From: Podarcis gaigeae
Lineage: Eukaryota
NCBI GenBank assembly: GCA_964106915.2
Contig: OZ066916.1
Length of the DNA stretch: 64,000 nucleotides
Direction: 5' to 3' (one strand)
Under the pieces are notes generated by a model that was not told where the DNA came from, searched no databases, and saw only the letters and a list, made by a program, of their open reading frames with translations. Made by a program: the position numbers and the translations under genes. Shown in pieces: positions 6,261-64,000 of this stretch. The number at the start of each line of letters is the position of its first letter. Positions within the stretch are counted from its first letter, which is position 1.

Positions 6261-6349
6261 CGAGCATTGAAACTGAATGCTCTTTCTACTGGATCACCCA
6301 GAACACATTTCTTTTTAGCTTTACCCATGGCCCCCATGCAGCCCCAGAT

Positions 6350-6667
6350 TGTTGGTTTCTGCTTCCTTCACTGAGCAGCGAAGTGCTTGTCACAAGACAG
6401 TGTTTACATTCCACAGTCAAGTGCTGTTGGGTTTTCTCACGGGAAAGGAGACTGGATGTGACGTACACTGGTTTCCTGTTTTCACTGTTCTTCGCAGTTC
6501 AGTGTGTTCTCTCCGTGCTTTAGAGGAGAGAGAATGCTTTCTCTGCTCCGGCAGAGGCAAGATGTTTTTCTGTAACCTACCAGCTTTGAAGTCTAAATAA
6601 AGCAATATAGAGTATGTGGCACGTATTCCTCATCCTTCCGCTGTGCACGGGACACTGCATATCAACA
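6350..6667 (+). repeat. Copia 5' LTR
   Basis: TG...CA termini, AATAAA near 6596, 7 mismatches to the 3' LTR by manual comparison. Confidence 0.95.
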
Positions 6668-6672
6668 AAACT

Positions 6673-6687
6673 GGTTATGGGCTCCAG
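6673..6687 (+). promoter_or_regulatory. Primer binding site complementary to the anticodon arm of initiator tRNA-Met (half-tRNA priming)
   Basis: GGTTATGGGCTCCAG versus GGTTATGGGCCCAG, the reverse complement of tRNA-iMet CTGGGCCCATAACC. One extra T. Starts 5 nt after the LTR end. Confidence 0.8.
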
Positions 6688-7141
6688 AAGTCGAATCGGA
6701 GTGCCGGAAAAGGATCGGAATGCAGAGGGACAGATCGAAACGGTATCTGCTCTGCGCGTCAAAATGATTGATGAGGTATGTGCTACTGCTCCGGGCAGCC
6801 TGCCAGCTTCTATTTAATGGCTTTATGGCTGGACTTTGAACTTTTAAGGCCGTTTTGCCGGGCTCAGGCAAAGGCTAAAAGGAACAATTTCCTATGCTGG
6901 GGAAATCGAAAGTAACTTTTAAAAGTGCTTTTGGAATAAAGCAGCTGCAGCAGTGACGCAGCATGGATTTAAGGCAGCAGAGAGAAAGCACTTTTGAACT
7001 TGCCTTTGGAATGAGGTTTGAAGCAGCTGCAATTAAGCAGAGTGGCACAGGCTCACAGGCAGAGGCTGTTTTGAACTTGCTTTTGGAATGAAGCAGCACA
7101 GACACAGCTTGTATAAAGCAGCCTGATTTAAAGCAGCAGAG

Positions 7142-10100
7142 ATGACGCAGAAGGCTAATGCCAGAGTCATGATGGCTAGCTGCAGAAGGCTGGCTGAGGC
7201 AAGTGGGGAATTTGATGCCAATCAGCCAAATGCTCAACTCACAGTAGCCAGTGATACTGCCGTGATTCAGAATGAAGCAGACCGCCAGGGTGATAGCTGC
7301 ATGGGCAAGGGGGAGACTTCACAGACGTCATCCCATAGTGCAGTGGAACCACCAGATGGCGCCAAAGCTTTGAAGGCAGTGAAATGCTACTCGTGTGGAC
7401 GTCTAGGCCATATGAAGAGGGAATGCAGATATCCCAGGGCCAAGACAGAGCAGCGCAGCGAAAGCTCATCGCGTGGAAAAGGCCGAGGCAAAGGCAAAGG
7501 TCCGGTGTCCAGGACAACGCAGCACAAGGCAATGGTCTCACGCTTCACTCCAAAGGTTGCAGAGGTCCAGAAGACGTCTAGATCTTTCTTCGTTGTTGAT
7601 TCAGCTGCAACGCATCACATGTGCAACGATAAGCGACTGTTCGTGTCTTTTACACCGCAGGAAGGTGCGATTCACCAGGCGGATGACCACACAATCCCCA
7701 GTAAAGGCTACGGAACTGTTGTTCTTCACAGTTTGGACTTATCGATACAGGATGTGCTTTATGTGCCGGATGCCAAGCATAATCTGCTCAGCGTTGGACA
7801 GCTGAATGAGCGGAAAATTGATGTTTCCTTTAAGAACAAAAGGTGCATCATCACAAAGAAAAATGATTATGTATTGCATGCTGAATATGTTGATCGTTTA
7901 TATGTTTTGTATTTTGATGATGTTGTGCAGGATGACACTTGTTGCATTGCAGGTACTAACAAAAGTTTGCATGCAGAATGTATTCATGATTTTCATCGAA
8001 AATTTGGTCATTTGCATTTTGAGGCAGTATCTAAAATGCCTGCCTTGGTTGAAGGTATGACTATTAAACCCTGCAGGTACCACATGAAGTGCAAGGCATG
8101 CGCAGCAAACAAGGTGAAAATGGCTGCGAAAGGTAAGGTGTCTAGTAGGCAAGCTACAGAACCATACCAGGTTGTTCATGCTGATTTGGTTGGACCACTA
8201 GTGCCCTCTTTGGGTGGAAATAGGTACTTCATGGTTCTCATTGATGCATTTTCCAGATATATTTATGTGTACAATCTCAAGCAGAAATCAGAGGCTTTTC
8301 CTAGGTTCAAGGAATTCTGTGCTTGGTTGGAAAATGTGCATGGTAAGAAGATAAAAATTCTTTTCACTGATCGCGGGGGGGAATTCACTTCTCAGCAGTT
8401 TGAAGCTTTTCTGTCTGAGAAAGGAATTCAACACGATTTGTCTAGTCGTCGCTCGCCATGGCAGAATGGACTGTGCGAGAGGGCAAATCAGACATTGCTT
8501 CAAGGGTTAAAAACCTTGCTGCATGATGCCAATCTTCCAGAGAGTTATTGGGCCGAATCTCTCTCGTGTTTTGTTTACAGTTATAATCGCAGGTTATCTT
8601 CAGCGATTGGTTGTACCCCCTATGAGAAGATGTTTGGCAAGAAACCATACATCAAACACATGAAAATTTTGGGTTCTGACATGTGGGTTCACTCACCACA
8701 AAACTCCAAGTTAGACAAGCGTGGATTGCATGGTATCTTTCTAGGTTATCAGAAAGGGTCTTACAGAATAATGATGACTGACTCTAAGACAATTAAGCTC
8801 ACAAGAAGTGTTGAGTACAATGCCAAGTGGGGGGAGAATGTGGGAATTTTCCAATGTTATCCTGATGACAGTGATGAGACTGAGGATAGTCAAAAGCAAC
8901 CGCAAAAACCCACACCCACTGATGAAGGTTCTGATTCTGAGTCTGAAACTGAATCGGGTGATTCAGAGGATTTCAAGAGTGCGAAAGCCTCTATGCGACC
9001 CTCTGAAAGCTCTGATCAAGAATTGGAGGAACCATTGTTCACAATAGGTCACTTTTCTCCTAAGAAGGAAGAGGAAAGTGTTGAAGACTTAAGGCTAATT
9101 CGCAGATCACAGAGAGCAACAAAAGGCAGACCTCCAAAGAGATTTGCTGATGAGTTTGCTAAGATAGCAGTAACAGCTGTTAAAAGCTCCAAGAAGGTAT
9201 TTGAACCTTCAAGTTTCCAAGAAATCCAGGATTTGGATTCAAAGGAAGCTGAGCCATGGTTAAATGCCATGAAGGCTGAGCTTGATTCCTTAGAAAGGAA
9301 CAAAACATGGGACCTTGTTCCAGTAGTTCCAGGAATGAAACTGCTTGGAAGCAAATGGGTCTTCAAAGCGAAGACTGATCAAAATGGCAAGATAGTCAGA
9401 CACAAAGCCAGATTGGTAGCCAGAGGTTTTGCACAGGTACCAGGTGAAGACTATCACGAGACCTACTCACCCACCGTGAGGTATGAGAGCATTAGGCTTA
9501 TGCTCAAGCTAGCTGCAGAGGAGAATCTACACATTAGTCACCATGATGTGAATACAGCTTTTTTGTACGGATCTCTAGATGAATCACTTTATATGCTTCC
9601 ACCTGATGGCGTACAGGTAAAACAGGGATATGTTTGTGCTCTGAAGAAGTCCCTTTATGGTCTCAAACAAAGTGCACGGTGTTGGCACACAAAACTCACT
9701 GAAGTATTGTTTTCTCTAGGTTTTAAGCAAGGGAAAGCTGATCCATGTGTATTTGTCAAAGAGGAGGGGCAAAAGAAACTGTATTGTTTGTTTTATGTTA
9801 ATGATCTTTTATTCTTTTGGAAGGATGTCACAATGTACAATAATGCCCTAGCTCAACTGAAAGAGCACTTTGACATGAAAGATCTTGGTGAGGTAAACAA
9901 CTACCTATCTCTGGAAATAGAGAGAGATCAAGATGGTAACATTCTAGTACACCAGTCACGTAAAATTGCTGATGTGTTAAACAAACTAAACCTGATGGAT
10001 GCTAACCCTGTAGACACACCGATGACAACAGGTTATCAGGTAGATGACACTGAAGAAGCATTTTCTGACACTACACTGTACAGAAGTGTGCTAGGCAAGC

Positions 10101-10735
10101 TAAACTTCATTGCCAGATGTTCAAGACCTGACATTGCTGTTAGCTGTAATTTGCTAAGCAGACAAGTCAACAATCCTACTGTTAAGGATTGGAAAGCTCT
10201 GAAACGCATAGCACGGTATTTGAAAGGCACTATGCATTACAGACTGAGATTTAACAATCAGAAGTCTGGTGGTCTTGAGATTTTTGCAGATGCAAGTTTT
10301 GGAAGTGACACTACAGACAGGAAAAGTACGTCTGGAGTTTGCTATAAATACAATCAGGGTCTATTTGATTGGTCATGCAAGAAGCAAACAACAGTTAGCT
10401 TAAGTACTTGTGAAGCTGAACTGAATGCACTGTCTTATTCACTTAAGGATTGTGAATGGTTGTTACAATTGTGCAAAGACATGAAAATTCCTGTCAAATG
10501 TCCAATCCAGGTTTACCAGGACAACAAAGCATGTTTGGCTTTGCTGAATTCTGAAGGTTGTAAGCAAAGCACGAAGCACTTGCAATTGAAGTTGCAACAT
10601 GCTAGGGAACATATTCAGAAGGGACTCGTAACGGTGTCCTATATGCCAGGTAATGAAATTCCTGCTGATGTATTGTCCAAGATTGTATCAAGGGATCAAC
10701 ACTGTACCTATGTGCAGAAGTTGGGTTTGTACTGA
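7142..10735 (+). CDS. Copia polyprotein: zinc knuckle, aspartic protease, integrase, RT (YVND), RNase H
   Basis: CYSCGRLGHMKREC knuckle; VDSAATHHM protease; HRKFGH...CKAC integrase zinc motif; DDE core (HADLVGP, TDRGGEF, NGLCER); KARLVARGF, LKKSLYGLKQS and YVND in RT; FADASF, EAEL, DNKAC, ADVLSK in RNase H. Confidence 0.95.
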   Translation: MTQKANARVMMASCRRLAEASGEFDANQPNAQLTVASDTAVIQNEADRQGDSCMGKGETSQTSSHSAVEPPDGAKALKAVKCYSCGRLGHMKRECRYPRAKTEQRSESSSRGKGRGKGKGPVSRTTQHKAMVSRFTPKVAEVQKTSRSFFVVDSAATHHMCNDKRLFVSFTPQEGAIHQADDHTIPSKGYGTVVLHSLDLSIQDVLYVPDAKHNLLSVGQLNERKIDVSFKNKRCIITKKNDYVLHAEYVDRLYVLYFDDVVQDDTCCIAGTNKSLHAECIHDFHRKFGHLHFEAVSKMPALVEGMTIKPCRYHMKCKACAANKVKMAAKGKVSSRQATEPYQVVHADLVGPLVPSLGGNRYFMVLIDAFSRYIYVYNLKQKSEAFPRFKEFCAWLENVHGKKIKILFTDRGGEFTSQQFEAFLSEKGIQHDLSSRRSPWQNGLCERANQTLLQGLKTLLHDANLPESYWAESLSCFVYSYNRRLSSAIGCTPYEKMFGKKPYIKHMKILGSDMWVHSPQNSKLDKRGLHGIFLGYQKGSYRIMMTDSKTIKLTRSVEYNAKWGENVGIFQCYPDDSDETEDSQKQPQKPTPTDEGSDSESETESGDSEDFKSAKASMRPSESSDQELEEPLFTIGHFSPKKEEESVEDLRLIRRSQRATKGRPPKRFADEFAKIAVTAVKSSKKVFEPSSFQEIQDLDSKEAEPWLNAMKAELDSLERNKTWDLVPVVPGMKLLGSKWVFKAKTDQNGKIVRHKARLVARGFAQVPGEDYHETYSPTVRYESIRLMLKLAAEENLHISHHDVNTAFLYGSLDESLYMLPPDGVQVKQGYVCALKKSLYGLKQSARCWHTKLTEVLFSLGFKQGKADPCVFVKEEGQKKLYCLFYVNDLLFFWKDVTMYNNALAQLKEHFDMKDLGEVNNYLSLEIERDQDGNILVHQSRKIADVLNKLNLMDANPVDTPMTTGYQVDDTEEAFSDTTLYRSVLGKLNFIARCSRPDIAVSCNLLSRQVNNPTVKDWKALKRIARYLKGTMHYRLRFNNQKSGGLEIFADASFGSDTTDRKSTSGVCYKYNQGLFDWSCKKQTTVSLSTCEAELNALSYSLKDCEWLLQLCKDMKIPVKCPIQVYQDNKACLALLNSEGCKQSTKHLQLKLQHAREHIQKGLVTVSYMPGNEIPADVLSKIVSRDQHCTYVQKLGLY

Positions 10736-10768
10736 TATTGTACGAACACGCTGCCCAGTGATGTTCAC

Positions 10769-10782
10769 AGAAAGGGGGAGGA
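10769..10782 (+). promoter_or_regulatory. Polypurine tract (plus-strand primer)
   Basis: AGAAAGGGGGAGGA directly abuts the 3' LTR TG. Confidence 0.9.
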
Positions 10783-11100
10783 TGTTGGTTTCTGCTTCCT
10801 TCACTGAGCAGCGAAGTGCTTGTCACAAGACAATGTTTACATTCCACAGTCAAGTGCTGTTGGGTTTTCTCACGGGAAAGGAGACTGGATGTGACGTACA
10901 TTGGTTTCCTGTTTTCACTGTTCTTCGCAGTTCAGTGTGTTCTCTCCGTGCTTTAGAGGAGAGAGAATGCTTTCTCTGCTCCGGCAGAGGCAAGATGTTT
11001 TTCTGTAACCTACCAGCTTTGAAGTCTAAATAAAGCAATATAGAGTATGTGGCACATACTCCTCATCCTTCCACTATGCACGGGACGCTGCATATCAACA
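10783..11100 (+). repeat. Copia 3' LTR
   Basis: Same 318-bp sequence as the 5' LTR, preceded directly by the PPT. Confidence 0.95.
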
Positions 11101-11762
11101 ATACAGATGGCCCCACGCAACCCCTGGGGCAATGCAGCCCTCAGCAAAAAGCAGGCAGGATATTCTTGCTTGAATATATTATGGCTATTATTTTTAAAAT
11201 GCTGTAATATAAAAACAAAATAAGAATAAAACACTTCACTCCTGGCAATGCCTTAGAAGGCAACATTGCACTGCTTATCTTTGACCTCCCATTTTAGGTC
11301 TCTGTTTCAAGCCCAAAGAGGTTCAGACCTCTGAAACTTCATGATGTTTCTAAATTTCTAGACCCTGCTGCTTAAAAGGAGCAAGAAATAGCTTATTACT
11401 ACAAATCTAGTGCCAGAGAGTGCTGTGCAACCAACCGTAAACATTTTAAATTCAATTGCCCTTATGCAAGGAAAGTGTAGGAGACAATTAAATAAAAATC
11501 AATGGTCATACTTGGTGTGGTATTTTCCCCACAGGGTTTTGATTATAAAATGCAGCCCCGGCTAAGCAAATGTGCACCTTTGTGTTTTGTCCCCACCTCC
11601 TCCATGTTGCTGTTTTCCACTGATCTCCCTCAGATCCACTGCAATTGTGGAACAGAGCCACATGGAAGCACGTGGGCTGGAATCAATCTGAATGACAGCA
11701 TGAGCTTCTTTAGCAGTGCTGGCACAACTATCTATGCAGAATAATAAGCTGGTAGGAAGGCA

Positions 11763-12127
11763 GTAAAGGTAAAGGTAAAGGTAAAGGGACCCCTGACCAT
11801 TAGGTCCAATCGTGTCCAACTCTGGGGTTGCGGCGGTCATCTCGCTTTACTGGCCGAGGGAGCCAGTGCACAGCTTCCAGGTCATGTTGCCAGCATGACT
11901 AAGCCACTTCTGGTCAACCAGAGCAGCGCACGGAAATGCCGTTTAGCTTCCCGCCGGAGTGGTACCTATTTATCTACTTGCACTTTGATGTGCTTTCGAA
12001 CTGCTAGGTTGGCAGGAGCAGGGACCGAGCAACAGGAGCTCACCCTGTCACGGGGATTCGAACCGCCAACCTTCTGATCAGCAAGTCCTAGGCTCTGTGG
12101 TTTAACCCACAGCACCACCCACGTCCC
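11763..12127 (-). mobile_element. Sauria SINE (Squam1-type)
   Basis: Minus strand starts GGGACGTGGGTGGTGCTGTGGGTTAAACC, has a B-box-like GGTTCGAATCCC and ends in (ACCTTT)n. Confidence 0.92.
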
Positions 12128-33368: not shown

Positions 33369-36300
33369 CCCCTTCATGGATCACTGCCTTGCCGTGGCGA
33401 AGGGGCTTGAAGAACTCAGAGAAGCTATGAAATATGCCAAGCAGGGCACCCAAGATGAACAGGTCATAGTGGAGAGTTTTGACCAAACGTGATCCACCTG
33501 GAGCAGGAACTGGCAAGCCACTCCAGTATCCCTGCCAAGAAAACTCCATGGACAAAGGCAACAGACATATAAAAGTTATGACGCTGGAAGATGAGCCCCT
33601 CAGGTCGGAAGGCGTCCAACATGCTACTGGGGAAGAGCGGAGGACAAGTACAAGTAGATTCAGAGCTGATGAAGCGGCTGGGCCAAAGTCGAAAGGACGC
33701 TCAGTTGTGAATATGCCTGGAAGCGAAAGGAAAGTCCAATGCTGTAAAGAAAAATATTGCATAGGAACCTGGAATGTAAGAACCATGAACCTTGGTAAGT
33801 TGATGTGGTCAAAAATGAGATGGCAAGAATAAATATTGACATCCTGGGCATCAGTGAATTAAAATGGACAGGAATGGGTGAATTCAGATCGGATGACCAT
33901 ATCTACTACTGTGGGCAGGAATCCCATAAAAGAAATGGAGTGGCCCTCATAGTCAACAAAAGAGTGGTGAAGGCTGTAATGGGATGCAATCTCAAAAATG
34001 ATAGAATGATCTCGATACGAATCCAAGGCAGACCTTTTAACATCACAGTAATCCAAGTTTATGCACCAACCACTAGTGCTGAAGAAACTGAAATTGACCA
34101 ATTCTATGAAGACTTACAACACCTTATAGAAATGACACCAAAGAAGGATGTTCTTCTCATTATAGGGGATTGGAATGCTAAAGTAGGGAGTCAAGAGATA
34201 AAAGGAACAACTGGCAAGTTTGGCCTTGGAGATCGAAACGAAGCAGGGCAAAGGCTAATAGAGTTCTGCCAAGAGAACAAGCTGGTCATCACAAACACTC
34301 TTTTCCAACAGCACAAGAGACGACTCTACACATGGACATCACCAGATGGGCAGCATCAAAATCAGATTGATTATATACTCTGCAGCCAAAGATGGAGAAG
34401 CTCTATACAGTCAGCAAAAACAAGACCTGGAGCTGACTGTGGCTCAGATCATCAGCTTCTTATAGCAAAATTCAAGCTTAAACTGAAGAAAGTAGGAAAA
34501 ACTACTGGGCCGGTAAGATACAATCTAAGTCAAATCCCTTATGAATACACAGTGGAAGTGAGGAATAGGTTTAAGGATTTAGATTTGGTGGACAGAGTGC
34601 CTGAAGAACTATGGATGGAGGCTCATAACAATATACAGGAGGCAGCAACTAAAACCATCCCAATGAAAAGGAAATGCAAGAAAGCAAAGTGGCTGTCCAA
34701 CGAAGCCTTACAAATAGCGGGGGAGAGAAGGCAAGAAAAATGCGAGAGAGATAGTGAAAGATACAGGAAATTGAATGCAGAGTTCCAAAAAATAGAAAGG
34801 AGAGACAAGAAGGCCTTCTTAAACGAGCAATGCAAAGAAATAGAAGAAAACAATAGAATGGGGAAAACCAGAGATCAGTTCAAGAAAATTGGAGATATGA
34901 AAGGAACATTTCGCACAAAGATTACCATAATAAAAGACAAAAGTGGAAAGGACCTAACAGAAGCAGAAGACATCAAGAAGAGGTGGCAAGAATACACAGA
35001 GGAATTATACCAGAAAGATATGGATGTCTCATATACCCCAGGTAGTGTGGTTGCTGACCTTGAGCCAGACATCTTGGAGAGTGAAGTCAAATGGCCTTAG
35101 AAAGCACTGCTAATAACAAGGCCAGTGGAAGTGATGATATTCCAGCTGAACTATTTAAAATTTTAAACGATTATGCTGTTAAGGTGCTACACTCAATATG
35201 CCAGCAAATTTGGAAAACTCAGCAGTGGCCAGAAGATTGAAGAAGATCAGTCTACATCCCAATCCCAAAGAAGGGCAGTGCCAAAGAATGCTCCAACTAC
35301 CGCACAATTGCACTCATTTCACACGCTAGCAAGGTTATGCTTAAAATTCTACAAGGCAGGCTTAAGCAGTACGTGGACCGAGAACTCCCAGAAGTGCAAG
35401 CTGGATTTCGAAGGGGCAGAGGAACCAGGGACCAAATTGCAAACATGCGCTGGATTATGGAGAAAGCTAGAGAGTTCCAGAAAGACATCTACTTCTGCTT
35501 CATTGAATATGCAAAAGCCTTTGACTGTGTCGACCACAGCAAACTATGGCAAGTTCTTAAAGAAATGGGAGTGCCTGATCACCTCATCTGTCTCCTGAGA
35601 AATCTCTATGTGGGACAAGAAGCTACAGTTAGAACTGGATATGGAACAACTGACTGGTTCAAAATTGGGAAAGGAGTACGGCAAGGCTGTATATTGTCTC
35701 CCTGCTTATTTAACTTATATGCAGAATTCATCATGCGAAAGGCTGGGCTGGATGAATCCCAAGCTGGAATTAAGATCGCCGGAAAAATTATCAACAACCT
35801 CAGATATGCAGATGACACAACCTTGATGGCAGAAAGTGAGGAGGAATTAAAGAACCTTTTAACGAGGGTGAAAGAGGAGAGCGCAAAATATGGTCTGAAG
35901 CTCAACATCAAAAAAAACGAAGATCATGGCCACTGGTCCCATCACCTCCTGGCAAATAGAAGGGGAAGAAATGGAGGCAGTGAGAGATTTTACTTTCTTG
36001 GGCTCCATGATCACTGCAGATGGTGACAGCAGTCACAAAATTAAAAGACGCCTGCTCCTTGGGAGAAAGGCGATGGCAAACCTAGACAGCATCTTAAAAA
36101 GCAGAGACATCACCTTGCCAACAAAGGTCTGTATAGTTAAAGCCATGGTTTTCCCGGTAGTAATGTATGGAAGCGAGAGCTGGACCATAAAGAAGGCTGA
36201 TCGCCGAAGAATTGATACTTTTGAATTATGGTGCTGGAGGAGACTCTTGAGAGTCCCATGGACTGCAAGAAGATCAAACGTATCCATTCTTAAGGAAATT

Positions 36301-36588
36301 AGCCCTGAGTGCTCACTGGAAGGACAGATCGTGAAGTTGAGGCTCCAATACTTTGGCCACCTCATGAGAAGAGAAGACTCCCTGGAAAAGACCCTGATGT
36401 TGAGAAAGATTGAGGGCACAAGGAGAAGGGGATGACAGAGGACGAGATGGTTGGATAGTGTCTTCGAAGCTACCAGCATGAGTCTGACCAAACTGCGGGA
36501 GGCAGTGGAAGACAGGAGTGCCTGGCGTGTTCTGGTCCATGGGGTCACAAAGAGTCGGACACGACTAAACGACTAAGCAACAACAACA
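33369..36588 (+). mobile_element. BovB (RTE clade) LINE, near full-length, disabled by frameshifts and stops
   Basis: APE endonuclease (IGTWNV, LGISE, GDWNAKVG, IDYIL, SDH) and RT (GVRQGCILSP, LRYADD) are spread over ORFs 33479-36435. 3' end GGGGTCACAAAGAGTCGGACACGACT plus a (CAA)n tail. TSD ATCCTCTCTCC / ATCCTATCTCC at 33358-33368 and 36589-36599. Confidence 0.95.
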
Positions 36589-44480: not shown

Positions 44481-46146
44481 AGAAAATCCTGCCCCCTGCC
44501 TTCTTTTAAAAGGTATCTGAAGCTAAATTTAGCATACCACAGAGGATTTATCATAGTAAAATTGTCATCATCTTTTACTTCAAGAGAAATGTGAGTTCTG
44601 AAAGCTTTTTGAGGAGGAGTGGATCAGGGAGGAAAAATCTTTTCCCCCCCTTCCTATAATCATAAGGGCTACAGCCCTTACTTGGTTGTAAATGAAAACT
44701 GAAGAGGGCCACCAGAATTATGGGTGCCTGAACAACTACCACAAACCTAACACACCCTACTGTTATCTGTTCACATAATACATGTAGGCCAGCTGTAGAA
44801 ACTGACATTTATTATACTTTCTTGGATGGTGGTATCACAGCATAAATGATAACTTTTAAAAATAAATCACATACAACCATATATGCAAATACTGGAATAT
44901 TTTTGGGGGGGGTTAGAATCATGGAAAATTCAGCATTGCTCTGTAAATAGGTTAGAAACGATAGCTTATAAATGTTTTAAAATACTTTCACACTTACACA
45001 AACATTTGAGATTGAACTCAGAGTTTAATTGGGGATTTGAACTCTATTTGAAAGTATTAAGACAACCTGAATTACAGATTCCTTATAAATTTATTTTCTT
45101 CTTATGGTAATACAAAAATTAACTGTTTCACTTCTGGATTTTTAGAAGGCTTGCATTTTTCATAGTTAAAAAGTACGCTGAAAAAGGCTTATGGGAAATA
45201 TCTGCAGGGCAGACTATTCTGTATTCACCATATGCACAGCATTTCTTTCCTTAAACATTTTATTAACCTTCTGCTGATGCAAAATGATTGCTGATCAAGC
45301 AATAGATGGGGGGTCAGTCCTGCAATTATGTTTTGAATTCTATTCAAACATATCTCAGCCAGCATGAAAGGGTGGGGATGGGAGTTGATAAAATGAGTTG
45401 TTCTTGAAATGGGGTCTTTTAGAAGAACAATTAACCTACAATAACTGTTCTGGCCTCCTCTTAAGCCCCTGAATAGTAATCCTTCCTCATTAACTTCAAG
45501 TCTAATTAGCACCAGTAATGAAAACTGCTTCTGAAATAATCATAAGGTCATGCTCCCTTCATCTACAAAGTCTAATAATACCAATTAGTGCACTGGCCAT
45601 TTTGATTTAACCACATGGCCATCCAGTTAGTCAACAGACATGGGCTGGAGGAACCTGTGCACCTGGGATAAGTCACAGCTTGGAATTAGTGAGCAGACTC
45701 GAGTCAAGCCACAGATATGGCCAGATTTTGGCTGGATCTAGACACATCAAAGAAGCATTTCTGTTTTGTCTTTCTTCCCTTCTCCTTGCCACCTGTTTTT
45801 TCCTCTGTTAATGCTCACAGCATTTCTTCTGTGTCGTCCTAAGCATGGCATACAACTTTTCTCAAACTATACACAGCAAGTGGTCTTAGGGAGCAATGGG
45901 TAAGACACTTGTATCCTGTTTGTGGTGTTGTTTTTGTACCAAGCATTTTATGACTGTCAGGTATACCTAAAATTTAGCACCTGCACTATTACTTATCTGA
46001 GATTCTTGTACTCAAAAATCCATAAATAAATGTGCCTGTTTTATTTTATTTTTAAAGAAAGCTGTTGGGGGCTACTAGAATAACAGCAGAACTGGAGGCA
46101 TGGGTTCTTCTTGAGAATGTTATTTGATTTTCTAAAAGATATAGGG

Positions 46147-46278
46147 CAGGCATAGGCAAACTCGACCCTCCAGATGTTTTGGGACTACAATTCCCATCAT
46201 CCCTGACCACTGGTCCTGTTGGCTGGCATGGGTGTTGTAGTCCCAAAACATCTGGAGGGCCGAGTTTGCCTATACCTG
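46147..46278. mobile_element. Palindromic hAT MITE
   Basis: Long TIR CAGGCATAGGCAAACTCG... and a perfect 8-bp TSD ATATAGGG. Confidence 0.92.
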
Positions 46279-48635
46279 ATATAGGGCCTAAAGAGGACCC
46301 CTTTGGTGAAGTGTGAGCTCATGAAGAGCTTCTATTTTCTGCTGGTCTAATACTCCAAGTGAAGAGATTTCAACTAGGTGAAATGTGACCCATTGATTGG
46401 ATCGACTAATAATTTGTTGCAAGCTTCAGATTTGCAAGTTTTTCTTCAGATATGGGCAATCAGGGTGGAAAAAAAGAAATCCTACAAATGCAGCTAAACT
46501 GGAAGATACCTGGCTGAGGCTAGTGCTCCATGAACAAAGAATTATAAAATCATATTGTAGTAATTAATAAGATTACACTCAGTTAGACTTTGCCCAGAGG
46601 AACAGTTATTTCTGCCTTATGGAGAATATGTGATGGAAATTTTCAATATTGCAATCACTTAGTTTGATAAAAGATATAATTCAATTTACTACATATCTCT
46701 CAGTATACGGGATACAATAGTGCCGCTGACATTTCATAGCAGACTTGAGCAGGCACTAACTGAATGGTGCTGAAGGCCAGCTCAGGAAAAGTGTGCACAG
46801 GATCACACCCTTGGAGATGTTGGCACTGGACCTTGGATGGGCAGATCTGCCTATTCTTATTTCTATTAATTTCCTCAGTTTCCCCATCTATCAGTACTCC
46901 ACAGTTCAGTACTCCACATTTGTGGATCAGTTTGCAATTTAATTATTTATTTAAGAAGCTCTTGTGAAAATTCATCAGCATTTTATTGCAGATTTCTACT
47001 AGTATAACACATTTTTGTATGTTAGTTTCGCTAATGTGGGCATTTTTTTGCATACTTTACCCAGGTATATGCATTTTTGTACACATTACTTGGCTTACTT
47101 GGCTGGAGGACTGCACTGCAAAATTTGGAGATGTGCAAATTTGGAAGGATCACTGTGCTTCAGGTTTAGTTCAAGTATTGTTTCAAAAAGTGCGAATTAG
47201 TTAGGTTTACCTTTAAATGCAAACTGAATCAGATTTATTCCCAATATTTTATTTTTGTAACTAAAAGCAGCCTCCTGGAAAGAAATTATGGAGGGGAGAT
47301 GCAGCTTAACTCTTCCCCTTCCAGGCATTTTTGTGCATTCAAAAGCCATATACACATTCCTCAGTGTGCTTTTTATTTCACAGGGGTAAATATATAGGTA
47401 CCTGTCTCTTACCTGCTGCAGGACAAAAAGCAGCAGGAAGTTACCAATTTTCAGTAGAAAATGTCTGGAAGGGAAAAGATTTCATACCACCACCACCTGC
47501 TCATCCTTCACCGCTATTCACAGCTTCTTGTCACTGCTTTCAGTTAAAACAAGGGCATTTCTGAGAAAATACACACATAGTAACATGCAATTTGGCTCTA
47601 AAATGTAGACAGTAAAAGCTACACTTTCAGTTGACACCAGCAATCTGTACACACAAATTGAATTCTATGGGATTATGCCCATGGTTTGTTTGTTAAAAGA
47701 AAAAAAAGAAAAAAAAACATAGATTAGGTCACATTTGTAGTCTAGGTGCATGCTAGTGCCATCTTCTGGATGTAGCCAGAACTACTCAATTAAAAGGAAT
47801 GAATAAACTTGTACAGTCATTTATCAGTTTCTGTCAGTGCCTCCTTTCCGTTTTATCCCAATTTAGAGAATTACCTCTTTCTTGAACTCTCAGTTCCCAG
47901 CAATGTGTTTGTATAAGAAGTTCACCTTTCATACATACAGAAGTCTACAAGTATATGGAGTATTTAGCCAACTCATGTGTTTCGGAGAAAAGCGTTTAAA
48001 TAATAAGATTTTAAACCCTCACTATCATTCAAAGCTGGTTTAGAGAAAGGCAGCATCCTGTGATATTATGAACTGATTCTGATTGCTTCCAGAGGCATGC
48101 TATGGCGCAGTGCTGCATCTGTGAACTGTTTTGCATTAGGGACAAGGGTCCCTTTCTTTGCACTTCATAATGATGAATGTGATTCCTGAAGAGTGGTTCT
48201 CCGGTTCCAACCTCAGCATTGATGTATTAGCTGCCTTCTATGCTCTCACAACTCCACTTCAGCCCCCAAGGAAAAGGATGTGGCAAACAAAACGTCTGCA
48301 CTGTTTTGAAGGTGCCCTGCTCTACCAGACCTGACGAAACCTAGGTATATATCTAGGGTGTGGTCACAACACTGACCACATTGTGTAGAAGCTAACTCAG
48401 CTGCTGTCACTGAGAAGCAAAAAAAACCACACACCTCAGAGCAGGAGCTGCCAGTCTCTTGTGTCCTGTCCCTGGAAAGGAGCTGTTGCATGGCCCCCAA
48501 CCAATTGGAAGTTCATAATAAGGTAATAAATTGCAAGGACGTAACAATGTAAGCGAGGCCTGCTGGATCAAGCCCAAGTCCTGCCTAGACCAGAATACTG
48601 CTCTGACAGTGGCCAACCAGATGCCTCTTAAAATG

Positions 48636-48990
48636 AGGTAAAGGTAAATGGACCCCTGACCATTAGGTCCAGTCGTGAACGACTCTAGGGTTGCGGCGCT
48701 CATCTCGCTTTATTGGCCGAGGGAGCTGGCGTACAGTTTCCGAGTCATGTGGCCAGCATGACTAAGCCACTATTGGCAAACCAGAGCAGTGCACGGAAAC
48801 GCCGTTTACCTTCCCACCAGAGCAATACCTATTTATCTACTTGCACTTTGACATGCTTTCGAACTGCTTGGTTGGCAGGAGCAGGGACCGAGCAACAGCA
48901 GCTCACCCCATCACGGGGATTCGAACCGCCGACCTTTTGACCGGTAAGTCCTAGGCTCTGTGGTTTAACTCACAGCACCAGCCACGTCCC
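48636..48990 (-). mobile_element. Sauria SINE (Squam1-type)
   Basis: Highly similar to 11763-12127. Flanked by a TSD-like TCTTAAA(A)TGAGGTA. Confidence 0.92.
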
Positions 48991-53128: not shown

Positions 53129-53493
53129 GGGACGCAGGTGGCGCTGTGGGTTAAAGCCTCAGCGCCTAGGACTTGCCGATTGAAAGGTCGGCGGTTCGAA
53201 TCCCTGCGGCGGGGTGCGCTCCCGCTGCTCGGTCCCAGCGCCTGCCAACCTAGCAGTTCGAAAGCACCTCCGGGTGCAAGTAGATAAATAGGGACCGCTT
53301 ACCAGCGGGAAGGTAAACGGCGTTTCCGTGTGCGGCTCTGGCTCGCCAGATGCAGCTTTGTCACGCTGGCCACGTGACCCGGAAGTGTCTCCGGACAGCG
53401 CTGGCCCCTGGCCTCTTGAGTGAGATGGGCGCACAACCCCAGAGTCTGTCAAGACTGGCCCGTACGGGCAGGGGTACCTTTACCTTTACCTTT
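53129..53493 (+). mobile_element. Sauria SINE (Squam1-type), CpG-rich and probably young
   Basis: GGGACGCAGGTGGCGCTGTGGGTTAAA...GGTTCGAATCCC...(ACCTTT)3, with many intact CpGs. Confidence 0.92.
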
Positions 53494-55437
53494 AAGCAAA
53501 CGGAAGCATAATAAACAACATGCATATTATAGGTAATGACAATGGGGAAAATAAGGTAATGACAATGGGGAAAATAATCCAATGGTCATAGTGCTGCCTT
53601 GGGAGCTTCCTCCTCTTCTGAAGACACTTTGCATGCATGAAAATGAAGCTTTTCTCTGCCACATTTCCCCAACTGTAAATGTGAATAATTGCATCTCTTT
53701 ACTATACAGGAAAACAGCCTGTACCAACATTTTGGTACACCTATGACTTAAATGTCATGTTTAACTATTCCAGCAGTTTAGAGGGAGACGGACATACAAA
53801 TACTTATGATAGACACCAAGATAAGTCAGAAATAGAGGTCTATACAGTTCTGCTTAGAAATTCCACCAAGCTCAGGTTATGCAGAAACTGCTCTTCATGA
53901 ATAGTTCATAGTGCAGTTAAATTGTTCTCTGAACCTTACTTCTGTGGAGACCATTGAAAACCAATGTGGTCCACTGGGTAGTTGTTGTTTCTATAATTTA
54001 AAATTGGGTTCAAATCCAAGTTGAACTCATCTGTAAATTGAGAATGTTAATTACTGACAAAAATGGGCTATGTAGAACATGAACCAACTAATGGTAGAAA
54101 TACAAACATACACTGCAATTGTATACACTAACATCCTATGGAACTTAGTGGGAACTGAGCAGGTTTGAAGGCAATAGTTGCAAAAGTCATTTGCATATTC
54201 ATATGCAGGTGATTAATAACTGGGCCAACTGAGAATTTTCACACTTTAAACATTAAGCATGCCTACACATTAGACTGACATCAATGAGAATCAATGGGGG
54301 AAATATTCCTTTTGAACTACAGGAAGATTACCAGCTGAGGTTGCATTGCATCTGAAGCTATATCCCATTCAAATGAGGCAAATACAACAGAATTAAACAC
54401 AAGCAAAATAATTGCACAGAGTTGATTTGTAAGAGCCATAGTGAGACAGCAGAATGAGGTAGTTATTGCCCGTAGCTTTCAGGATCTCATTCACAGTTTA
54501 AATATTTCACTCTTAGCACAATTTCTGTTGTCAGGATTACAAAATCAAACAAAAGGAATAGCAGTAAATTAATTATCCATCATGATTATTATCATATGAT
54601 CCAAGACAGGGGTGGGAAATAGCCAGCCTGTTGAGACCACGGAGGGCCATGGAGCCTCACCACCTGAACTGCAGCTTCTACTTCTTAGCCCCCCATCCTA
54701 CCCCATCATTTAGGTTTGAAAACCTAATTCACACCTATAGAAGACTACCTTCAAGCATAATTCCAGCACAGGAACATTTTCAGTGGAATTGCAGCTGAGG
54801 AAGGAGTTAACATTTAATAATGACTTTGCACTAGATATAAACTGATTTGATAGTTGTTTCTGTTCTCCAGGGCAGGGAATGCTGGGGAGCTCTAGCAGAG
54901 AATTCTGAGCATCTTAATCAAAGTATAGTTCACTGGCTTTTTTGTGGGAGGCCATGCTAGTTAAATTGGTATAAGACCAATATATGTGGGTAAAATACGT
55001 AGCTATAGCATTAGTATCTAAAGATTTGTATACACACCACCTGTTGCAGCATTACTCTAGTGCAATTGCTATCAACCCCAAATTGTACTGGAAGTTGGCT
55101 GAATTTACTTCCTAACAGAGTCATTTGCTCCCACCCTCTACCAGGGTGTCATAAAAATGGCCTATCCATAGCACGTGATCCATGTCCTATCCATAGCATA
55201 GAGGACATAAAGATACCTAACCACAAACTAAGAGTGTCTGGTGGCTTCCAGGATTGTGTATGTTTCCTGATCCATGGGGGTCCCACCCACAAGGACAGAT
55301 AATGGTCCAAGCAAGGTGGAGGTCTGTAGCCCGAAGATTCAAAGCAAACAGGAAGGCAAGGAAAGTTCAGCACCTTGGAGAGGGACCAATGTGTGGGTTT
55401 GAAGACCACTGTTAGTGAATCGGCAGAACATCTAAGT

Positions 55438-55573
55438 CAGGCATAGGCAAACTAGACCCTCCAGGTGTTTTGGGACTACAACTCCCATCATCCCTAGCTA
55501 ACAGAACCAGTGGTCAGAGATGATGGGAGTTGTAGTCCCAAAACACCTGGAGGGTCTAGTTTGCCTATGCCTG
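55438..55573. mobile_element. Palindromic hAT MITE, same family as 46147
   Basis: About 52-bp perfect inverted arms. 8-bp TSD ATCTAAGT / ATTTAAGT. Confidence 0.92.
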
Positions 55574-56605
55574 ATTTAAGTTGTCTAAGCAATGCCCTGA
55601 AGCAAAGGGCAAATCTTATAGCCTGGGCTAGGTAGAGGCTCCATTCCCTGAATGCTACATATGGTCAGTTAAAGGGCCCTTTACTGCAGAAGCTGATGTC
55701 TTCTAGACCCTCATATTTCAGTTTGTGGGGATCTCAGAGCTCTCTTGATCTTCCAAGGAGTCTGTGGTCCAAACATCAGGGTCTGATTCAGAGGAAGAGA
55801 CGCAGACTCCAGTGTCCATGACTCTACGTGGCATAGAAAAGAGAGTTGATCCCTCTCATCCTTGGGACTGCCATTGTCAGAAGACTTTCTCTCCAAGGAT
55901 TCCTAGATTCTACATGGTATGGAAGAAATACTACCACCTGCCACAGTGTTAACTTTTTGGCAGCTTGTCCATACTGAATTTTAACTGTGCTATACTTCAC
56001 ACTGAATATTATGTGAAGGAATATAATGTTAACAAATCCTAAGGCTAAACCCTAATGGGTAGGACTATTGCGGAGTCCGCCAGCAGCTATTCAAAATCAG
56101 CAAGGCGTAGACATAGGAGGGCTCCTGCACAGGTACAACACAAAAACATGGACATAAGGAGGAGCCCATCCTTCTAAAACTGATTACCAGGGTGGTGCCA
56201 AGAACAGAGATCTATGGAGAGGGAGCAGGGGGGCATGCAAAACCACCCTCTTTTTTCAGAATTAAAGACCATGGAGGGGGTAGCACCTGAAGGCAGTGTG
56301 GAAGACAGGACATCAAAGGATGATTCGGTAACAAAGCATTCTGAGAGTTACTGCATAGTGAGCCACAGTGACCTACCTCAAGCTACCTAGGAGAACATTC
56401 AGGCAGAGAATTTTCTTGGTGTCAGGAGAACTGTCAACATATTCTATTTCTAGAAGTCAATTACTGTGCCTGTCCCTCTGCTTTACCCCACTAGCCCAAA
56501 TAACAGTCAGCACTGGCAGCAAAGTCCAAATGGAAGATTGCTGGGCAGCAGAGGAAGGTCATTTCACAACACCATGCAAAATTTCATGCTTTTTCTTTGT
56601 AAGTA

Positions 56606-62599: not shown

Positions 62600-64000
<1,401 letters not shown>

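Follow-up and report, generated by a model that had tools for sequence, protein, structure and literature searches.

The Copia element in the window, a stretch of 64,000 nucleotides of Podarcis gaigeae DNA, belongs to a very young Copia family, of which it represents a capsid-deleted form. The capsid-encoding partner with the same LTRs that an earlier note on this DNA had predicted was found; it recombines freely with the capsid-less form. Both forms are one recombining pool, in which capsid state is unlinked to variants beyond about 200 bp. On genome sequence evidence, the capsid-deleted form appears likely to spread in capsid particles of the full form while likely supplying its own enzymes. 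That the capsid is borrowed from the full form of the same family seems very probable.

The window copy spans 6350-11103 and is identified as an LTR retrotransposon by two LTRs, a 5-bp target-site duplication (TSD), a primer-binding site (PBS) and a polypurine tract (Table 1). The LTRs, PBS and polypurine tract had been described as preserved and all were located, as was the TSD, CAGAT. The ATG at 7142, the in-frame TGA just upstream (7124-7126) and the 3.6 kb open frame (stop-to-stop 7127-10735, 1202 codons) are likewise as first reported. The domain order of the ORF is PR-IN-RT-RH with an RT of the RVT_2 type (Pfam), the arrangement of Ty1/copia elements. A full pol sets the copy apart from Gag-only or non-coding elements (TR-GAG, TRIM, LARD), and it differs from autonomous Ty1/copia elements in having neither a capsid domain nor an intact RT catalytic motif. 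The LTRs have 7 mismatches over 319 positions, and the copy belongs to the older copies of the family. Near 9794-9808 it has a substitution, private to this copy, in the RT catalytic motif, which is canonical in 137/137 other scorable copies (140 sampled), and so the window copy itself probably no longer supplies RT. The proposal that the element supplies NC, PR, IN, RT and RNase H is supported by constraint on Pol variants across copies but not by the window copy, with its mutated RT motif.

Table 1 Features of the Copia element, in window coordinates
Feature	Position	Strand	Basis or remark
Left target-site duplication CAGAT	6345..6349	+	sequence inspection
5' LTR	6350..6670	+	LTR comparison; 3' boundary approximate
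PBS complementary to host tRNA-Met(CAT) anticodon arm	6672..6687	+	one additional base in window copy
Non-coding 5' leader containing internal repeats plus several upstream ATGs	6688..7141	+	common to capsid-bearing and capsid-less copies
Single ORF, 1197 aa: short Gag N-terminus, capsid remnant, linker, NC, PR, IN, RT, RNase H	7142..10735	+	
Gag N-terminus left of deletion junction	7142..7200	+	7172-7200 resembles the divergent capsid-bearing subfamily (27/29 nt to L216)
In-frame capsid deletion junction	7200..7201	+	net 145 codons shorter than young full form
Drifted remnant of last two predicted capsid helices	7201..7291	+	alignment and Gag model
CCHC zinc knuckle (nucleocapsid)	7382..7429	+	PF00098
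Protease	7589..7816	+	PF22936
Integrase (GAG-pre-integrase, core, SH3-like)	7895..8821	+	PF13976/PF00665/PF25597
Reverse transcriptase	9299..10027	+	PF07727 (RVT_2)
RNase H region	10270..10732	+	presumed from motifs; bounds approximate
Polypurine tract	10769..10782	+	sequence inspection
3' LTR	10783..11103	+	LTR comparison
Right target-site duplication CAGAT	11104..11108	+	sequence inspection

The absence of a capsid, claimed from the outset, was upheld. No capsid or Gag Pfam family was found in the window ORF, and 7142-7432 gave no capsid or Gag match in a Pfam scan at E<=10, a scan that detects PF14223 in full copies. Nine leader frames (44-147 codons, stop-to-stop, both strands) gave no Gag Pfam match at E<=1. 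A capsid hidden in the leader or in another frame is ruled out by this lack of Pfam matches and by the full copies having the same leader. The earlier note had also described about 80 low-complexity residues before the zinc knuckle. Their length is right, the first Cys being residue 82, but they are not filler, since they consist of the Gag N-terminus, a drifted remnant (the last ~35 capsid residues) and the normal linker. Folding the window N-terminus as a single sequence gave a low-confidence model (pLDDT 46).

The full form shows what has been lost. Its Gag matches PF14223 (E 2e-29 to 4e-29, 2/2 copies tested), and the best match of its structural model is the Drosophila copia capsid 8vvw (Foldseek E 5e-5; VIA Z 15.4, rmsd 1.8, 94 aligned, model residues 105-198). 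The model was built from an 8-row alignment and is of middling confidence (mean pLDDT 61), its N-terminal half being poor. The deletion is in-frame and removes about 145 capsid codons (roughly residues 17-161), leaving the start codon, the zinc knuckle and all of Pol. On the model, this corresponds to the predicted N-terminal domain and most of the C-terminal one, whose first three predicted helices are gone. The capsid remnant (ORF codons 13-50) carries common variants, 3 synonymous and 13 non-synonymous, that show no purifying selection.

The flanks of the junction point to its origin. The 29 nt on the left agree at 27 positions with L216, a copy of a divergent capsid-bearing subfamily, and find no match in the young full form. 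The right flank, too, is consistent with the divergent subfamily, and the junction is accounted for by old-subfamily flanks with a 1-nt overlap. The deletion therefore probably arose in the divergent subfamily, whose LTRs are mostly 85-89% and NC-PR 93-96% identical to the window, and later moved into the young one. This order of events is our inference, since the capsid-less copies inspected included none with LTRs of the divergent type. The same flanks rule out the deleted segment being an intron and the junction being foreign filler; matches of 9-14 nt between the junction region and other parts of a full copy were judged incidental. Five copies on contig C1 have neither exact junction, three of them being capsid-bearing variants with a different N-terminus; it was a search with one of these three that brought out the divergent subfamily.

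The capsid-less form is the majority of the family. Exact 21-mers gave 382 capsid-less junctions against 94 full junctions, with 0 for reversed controls, all counts being lower bounds as only exact patterns were scored. The divergent capsid-bearing subfamily contributes 41 more exact matches, which brings the overall ratio of capsid-less to full to about 2.8:1, against about 4:1 within the young subfamily. With the 5' end as DNA query, 35 of 40 scored candidates were near-full matches (90-100% identity), and 30/30 loci inspected from this search had the same short N-terminus. A PR-IN protein search gave 111 matches at 97-100% identity, in which the open frame is most often 1202 codons; 14 of the 111 have the 1347-codon frame of the long, capsid-carrying class.

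The copies sampled were, for the capsid-less form, the first 80 of 382 sites (contigs C1-C3) and, for the full form, the first 60 of 94. Two LTRs are present in 77/80 capsid-less and 60/60 full copies, and these are identical over their first 300 nt in 54/77 and 41/60, respectively. An exact TSD was found in 53/77 capsid-less and 51/60 full copies, and an intact frame in 50/80 and 45/60. The exact 5-bp TSD is missing more often from capsid-less copies (24/77 vs 9/60, p 0.04), many of which have identical LTRs. Among identical-LTR copies the frame is intact in 37/52 capsid-less vs 35/41 full (p 0.14). Independent insertions with their own TSDs and mostly identical LTRs agree with the earlier proposal that the element transposed in its capsid-less state. 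At one place (L130-L133, G000:C2 ~119.01 and ~119.14 Mb), two nearby, oppositely oriented copies recur, TSDs included, as a duplicated block some 130 kb away.

Sequence specific to the capsid-less form is covered in 4/4 public runs under four organism labels (contigs only), one of which may be the assembly's own source. An independent public contig (P0012) encodes the capsid-less N-terminus; its protein diverges from the family just within the protease motif, perhaps because it comes from a splice product or because the contig is chimeric. A protein search with ORF residues 1-240 gave 5 matches, the best being a chimeric gene model of Podarcis lilfordi. Four public runs that are putatively RNA (contigs, most pieces unlisted) contain pieces of the full-form junction, and neither a capsid-less junction nor a leader splice is among the pieces listed.

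The capsid loss lies within the ORF and not in the leader. The leader has, as stated, no long plus-strand ORF (the longest overlapping stop-free stretch is 68 codons). Leader length is practically equal in both forms (median 530 nt capsid-less vs 528 nt full), and the leader is thus the 5' UTR usual for the family. The forms also have LTR subtypes and both PBS variants in common. Complementarity of the PBS to the tRNA-Met anticodon arm, by sequence a hemivirus trait, was supported by 13/14 genomic pattern matches carrying CAT and by ARAGORN, which called tRNA-Met at 2/2 loci scanned. The family resembles Drosophila copia, of the hemivirus type, in its PR-IN-RT-RH order, single ORF, tRNA-Met anticodon-arm PBS and 8vvw capsid fold; Drosophila copia is autonomous, whereas the capsid-less lizard form has no capsid. 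Drosophila copia primes from a half-tRNA. A two-base PBS variant (window equivalent 6677-6678) occurs in 58/95 identical-LTR copies, for example L074 and L153. It mismatches the tRNA-Met anticodon and eliminates one upstream ATG, of which leaders have a median of 11; no tRNA gene matching the variant was found in the genome. A strong splice-donor-like motif in the leader (window ~6774-6782) is kept in 133/135 copies.

Linkage was analysed in 136 rows, which include the window and exclude two segmental duplicates (L132, L133) and three copies missing an LTR. All four combinations with capsid state, each in >=2 copies, occur at 200/279 variable sites, and the mean r2 with capsid state is 0.01-0.02 in the LTRs and pol. 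Among 121 young copies, the r2 of SNPs with capsid state is 0.68 at 25-50 nt, drops to 0.09 at 100-200 nt and is <=0.02 beyond 200 nt. All four combinations occur at 14/14 distant transversion sites, each in >=3 copies. Between the two forms pol differs by 1.3%, a distance intermediate between those found within each form (1.1% and 1.5%). On pol trees the form changes 32 and 34 times, where a single clade would give 1 and shuffled labels about 40. These counts are slightly under random (p 0.007 and 0.04), so that mixing is incomplete and slight structure is left. One copy, L203 (G000:C9:97778416-97784816), joins the first ~118 full-form codons, with the N-terminal half of the capsid, in frame to the capsid-less junction. 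Near-zero linkage and the form changes on the pol trees rule out the capsid-less form as a separate clade. The earlier idea of a helper-parasitic lineage is thus supported in its borrowed capsid, as deduced from genome data, and corrected in its separate lineage.

A test for selection on pol across copies, proposed in the earlier note, showed purifying selection. Shared pol variants have pN/pS of 0.14-0.17 in both forms. Against a neutral expectation from the mutation spectrum of four-fold sites, pol variants found only in young capsid-less copies (30 synonymous, 30 non-synonymous) stand at 0.32 of neutral (p 1.5e-5), those found only in full copies at 0.36, those common to both forms at 0.17 and singletons at 0.46-0.49. 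In 76 scorable capsid-less copies, 25 carry 39 frame-breaking events; one site, a CpG stop, is found in two copies, and one 1-nt frame-breaking deletion is also present in a full copy. Two copies, L125 (34 events) and L128 (7), were left out, as truncation or deletion artefacts had inflated the raw total of 79. Shared frame-breaks are fewer than expected, a modest deficit (p 0.027). Since capsid-less copies make up about 80% of the pool, Pol constraint this strong suggests selection in cis, and we consider it rather likely on these variant patterns that the capsid-less form uses its Pol in cis. Free recombination is a confounder, as purifying selection in full copies would also shape the pol alleles of capsid-less copies.

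This confounder is central to the alternative in which the capsid-less form would borrow enzymes as well as capsid, its pol kept intact by recombinational import and by an open frame that protects or exports the RNA. Near-zero linkage implies that pol alleles pass through full copies, an in-frame deletion would fit a need for translation alone, and broken copies are commoner in the capsid-less form. A pool about 80% capsid-less would then, however, be predicted to share variants near-neutrally, whereas the values seen (0.17-0.32) are like the full-only 0.36. Moreover, no pol-deleted sublineage common to several copies occurs among the 140 sampled. We regard borrowing of the enzymes as unlikely, though it has a real claim to consideration.

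The linkage pattern and the chimera fit co-packaging of both RNAs with template switching. Recombination in bovine ERVK has been argued to reflect the same process, the standard reading, in the relevant part of PMC10924933. Alternatively, the capsid could be borrowed while the forms mix by ectopic gene conversion between chromosomal copies, since four-gamete patterns alone fit either route. Identical LTRs in 95/137 copies mark these as too young for much conversion, yet linkage is lost within about 200-400 nt, and the L203 chimera joins at short microhomology; gene conversion as the source of the mixing is improbable.

Still less probable is that the capsid of this family is unneeded because the Gag of another Copia family is used or replication is shell-free. 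Many capsid-bearing Copia families exist in the genome (>=150 scored PF14223 matches, 1664 candidates), but 12 inspected copies of other families share about 30% Pol identity with this one and no similarity at the DNA level, and the sequence exchange observed is with the same-family full form. Shell-free replication runs against established knowledge that capsid is required for LTR retrotransposition (PMC3977881). A post-insertion deletion at the window locus, or an assembly artefact, can be dismissed, since 382 copies spread over many contigs, with TSDs that differ, carry the loss, hundreds of independent insertions in all; it also appears in independent public runs, and is thus neither chance nor private to the locus.

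We propose that the full form would supply the capsid and that capsid-less RNA, having identical cis signals, would be co-packaged with full-form RNA. The NC-Pol product of the capsid-less form would bind its own RNA and enter the borrowed shell, and the founding of further copies would need an open, working Pol frame. Template switching would shuffle all but about 200 bp around the junction. The deletion would have had a single origin in the divergent subfamily and been recombined onto younger LTR and pol backgrounds. More tentatively, this old single deletion might be a selfish allele in a freely recombining vertebrate Copia population, one that has outlived subfamily turnover, persisted in several related species and reached ~80% frequency with its enzymes in cis. 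Were this so, the family would act like a two-component virus, with a frequency-dependent balance between shell makers and shell-less enzyme makers.

The freeloading strategy is already known from BARE-2, Tos17 and IAP 1-delta-1. Barley BARE-2 cannot make Gag; it travels in the particles of BARE-1 and is the predominant one, according to the portions of PMC3735527, PMC4350172 and PMC9744471 that deal with it. As far as those portions go, the lizard form resembles BARE-2 as a Copia subfamily that lacks capsid, keeps its other genes and outnumbers its partner. On the same portions, BARE-2 cannot express Gag at all, whereas the lizard form has an in-frame internal deletion, after which the start codon is still in frame with nucleocapsid and Pol; and packaging in partner particles has been shown for BARE-2, whereas for the lizard form it is deduced from genome data. 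Unlike BARE-2 and BARE-1 as there described, the lizard forms are a single pool with no linkage beyond ~200 bp, in a vertebrate host. The rice Copia element Tos17 has lost all of gag including the zinc knuckle yet transposes (two reference copies), its proposed helper being Lullaby, of a different family with 57% DNA identity (PMC3977881). Like Tos17 and RN304, also of rice, the lizard form has intact LTRs, PBS and PPT and a long pol ORF without capsid (PMC3977881); unlike Tos17 it keeps NC, and its helper is ~99% identical in pol. With BARE-2 and Tos17 it shares the loss of capsid with the pol frame kept, multiplication while defective and a capsid-encoding partner with the same cis signals.

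Among vertebrate LTR elements, the mouse IAP 1-delta-1 (ERV-K class) also has an in-frame internal deletion, and its fusion protein acts in cis; the element dominates new insertions, in the relevant part of PMC6466679. By that account the IAP deletion removes part of gag and pol, both then needed in trans, and the element is retrovirus-derived, not Copia. In the C/D pair of bovine ERVK[2-1-LTR], the defective form makes up ~85% of the family and recombination is pervasive, read as co-packaging, in the corresponding part of PMC10924933; its D elements are there without intact ORF, whereas the capsid-less lizard form has its whole Pol frame conserved. No description of an animal Copia of the capsid-less, Pol-keeping kind was found in the open-licence literature. 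The lizard form differs from these precedents in being a vertebrate Copia, in having lost only the capsid, in frame and with NC and Pol retained, and in a deletion that segregates like an allele beside its helper. It offers a vertebrate example of a Gag-borrowing Copia with ~500 very young copies and an identified, nearly identical helper. The capsid deletion is a built-in marker, so that recombination rate, the cis or trans use of Pol and a stable cheater-to-helper ratio become measurable from genomes and populations. There is also a warning for annotation: intact LTRs and a 1200-codon ORF do not guarantee that an element is autonomous, and most members of a family may be of the defective form.

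Several minor observations were made in the genome and window. Copia copies are strongly enriched on G000 contig C32, which is possibly a non-recombining sex chromosome; they come from this family, above all its divergent subfamily, and from others. The window contains a frameshifted LINE with endonuclease and RVT_1 domains at 33799-36435 (+), which we take to be probably RTE/BovB-like. A GC-rich 278-codon frame at 62647-63483 (-) has a signal-peptide-like start and no Pfam match, and is likely the first exon of a host gene. A SINE-like repeat of ~300 bp occurs in three copies (11773-12072, 48636-48935 and 53149-53494), and there are several MITE-like inverted repeats, at 46136-46284 and 55427-55578.
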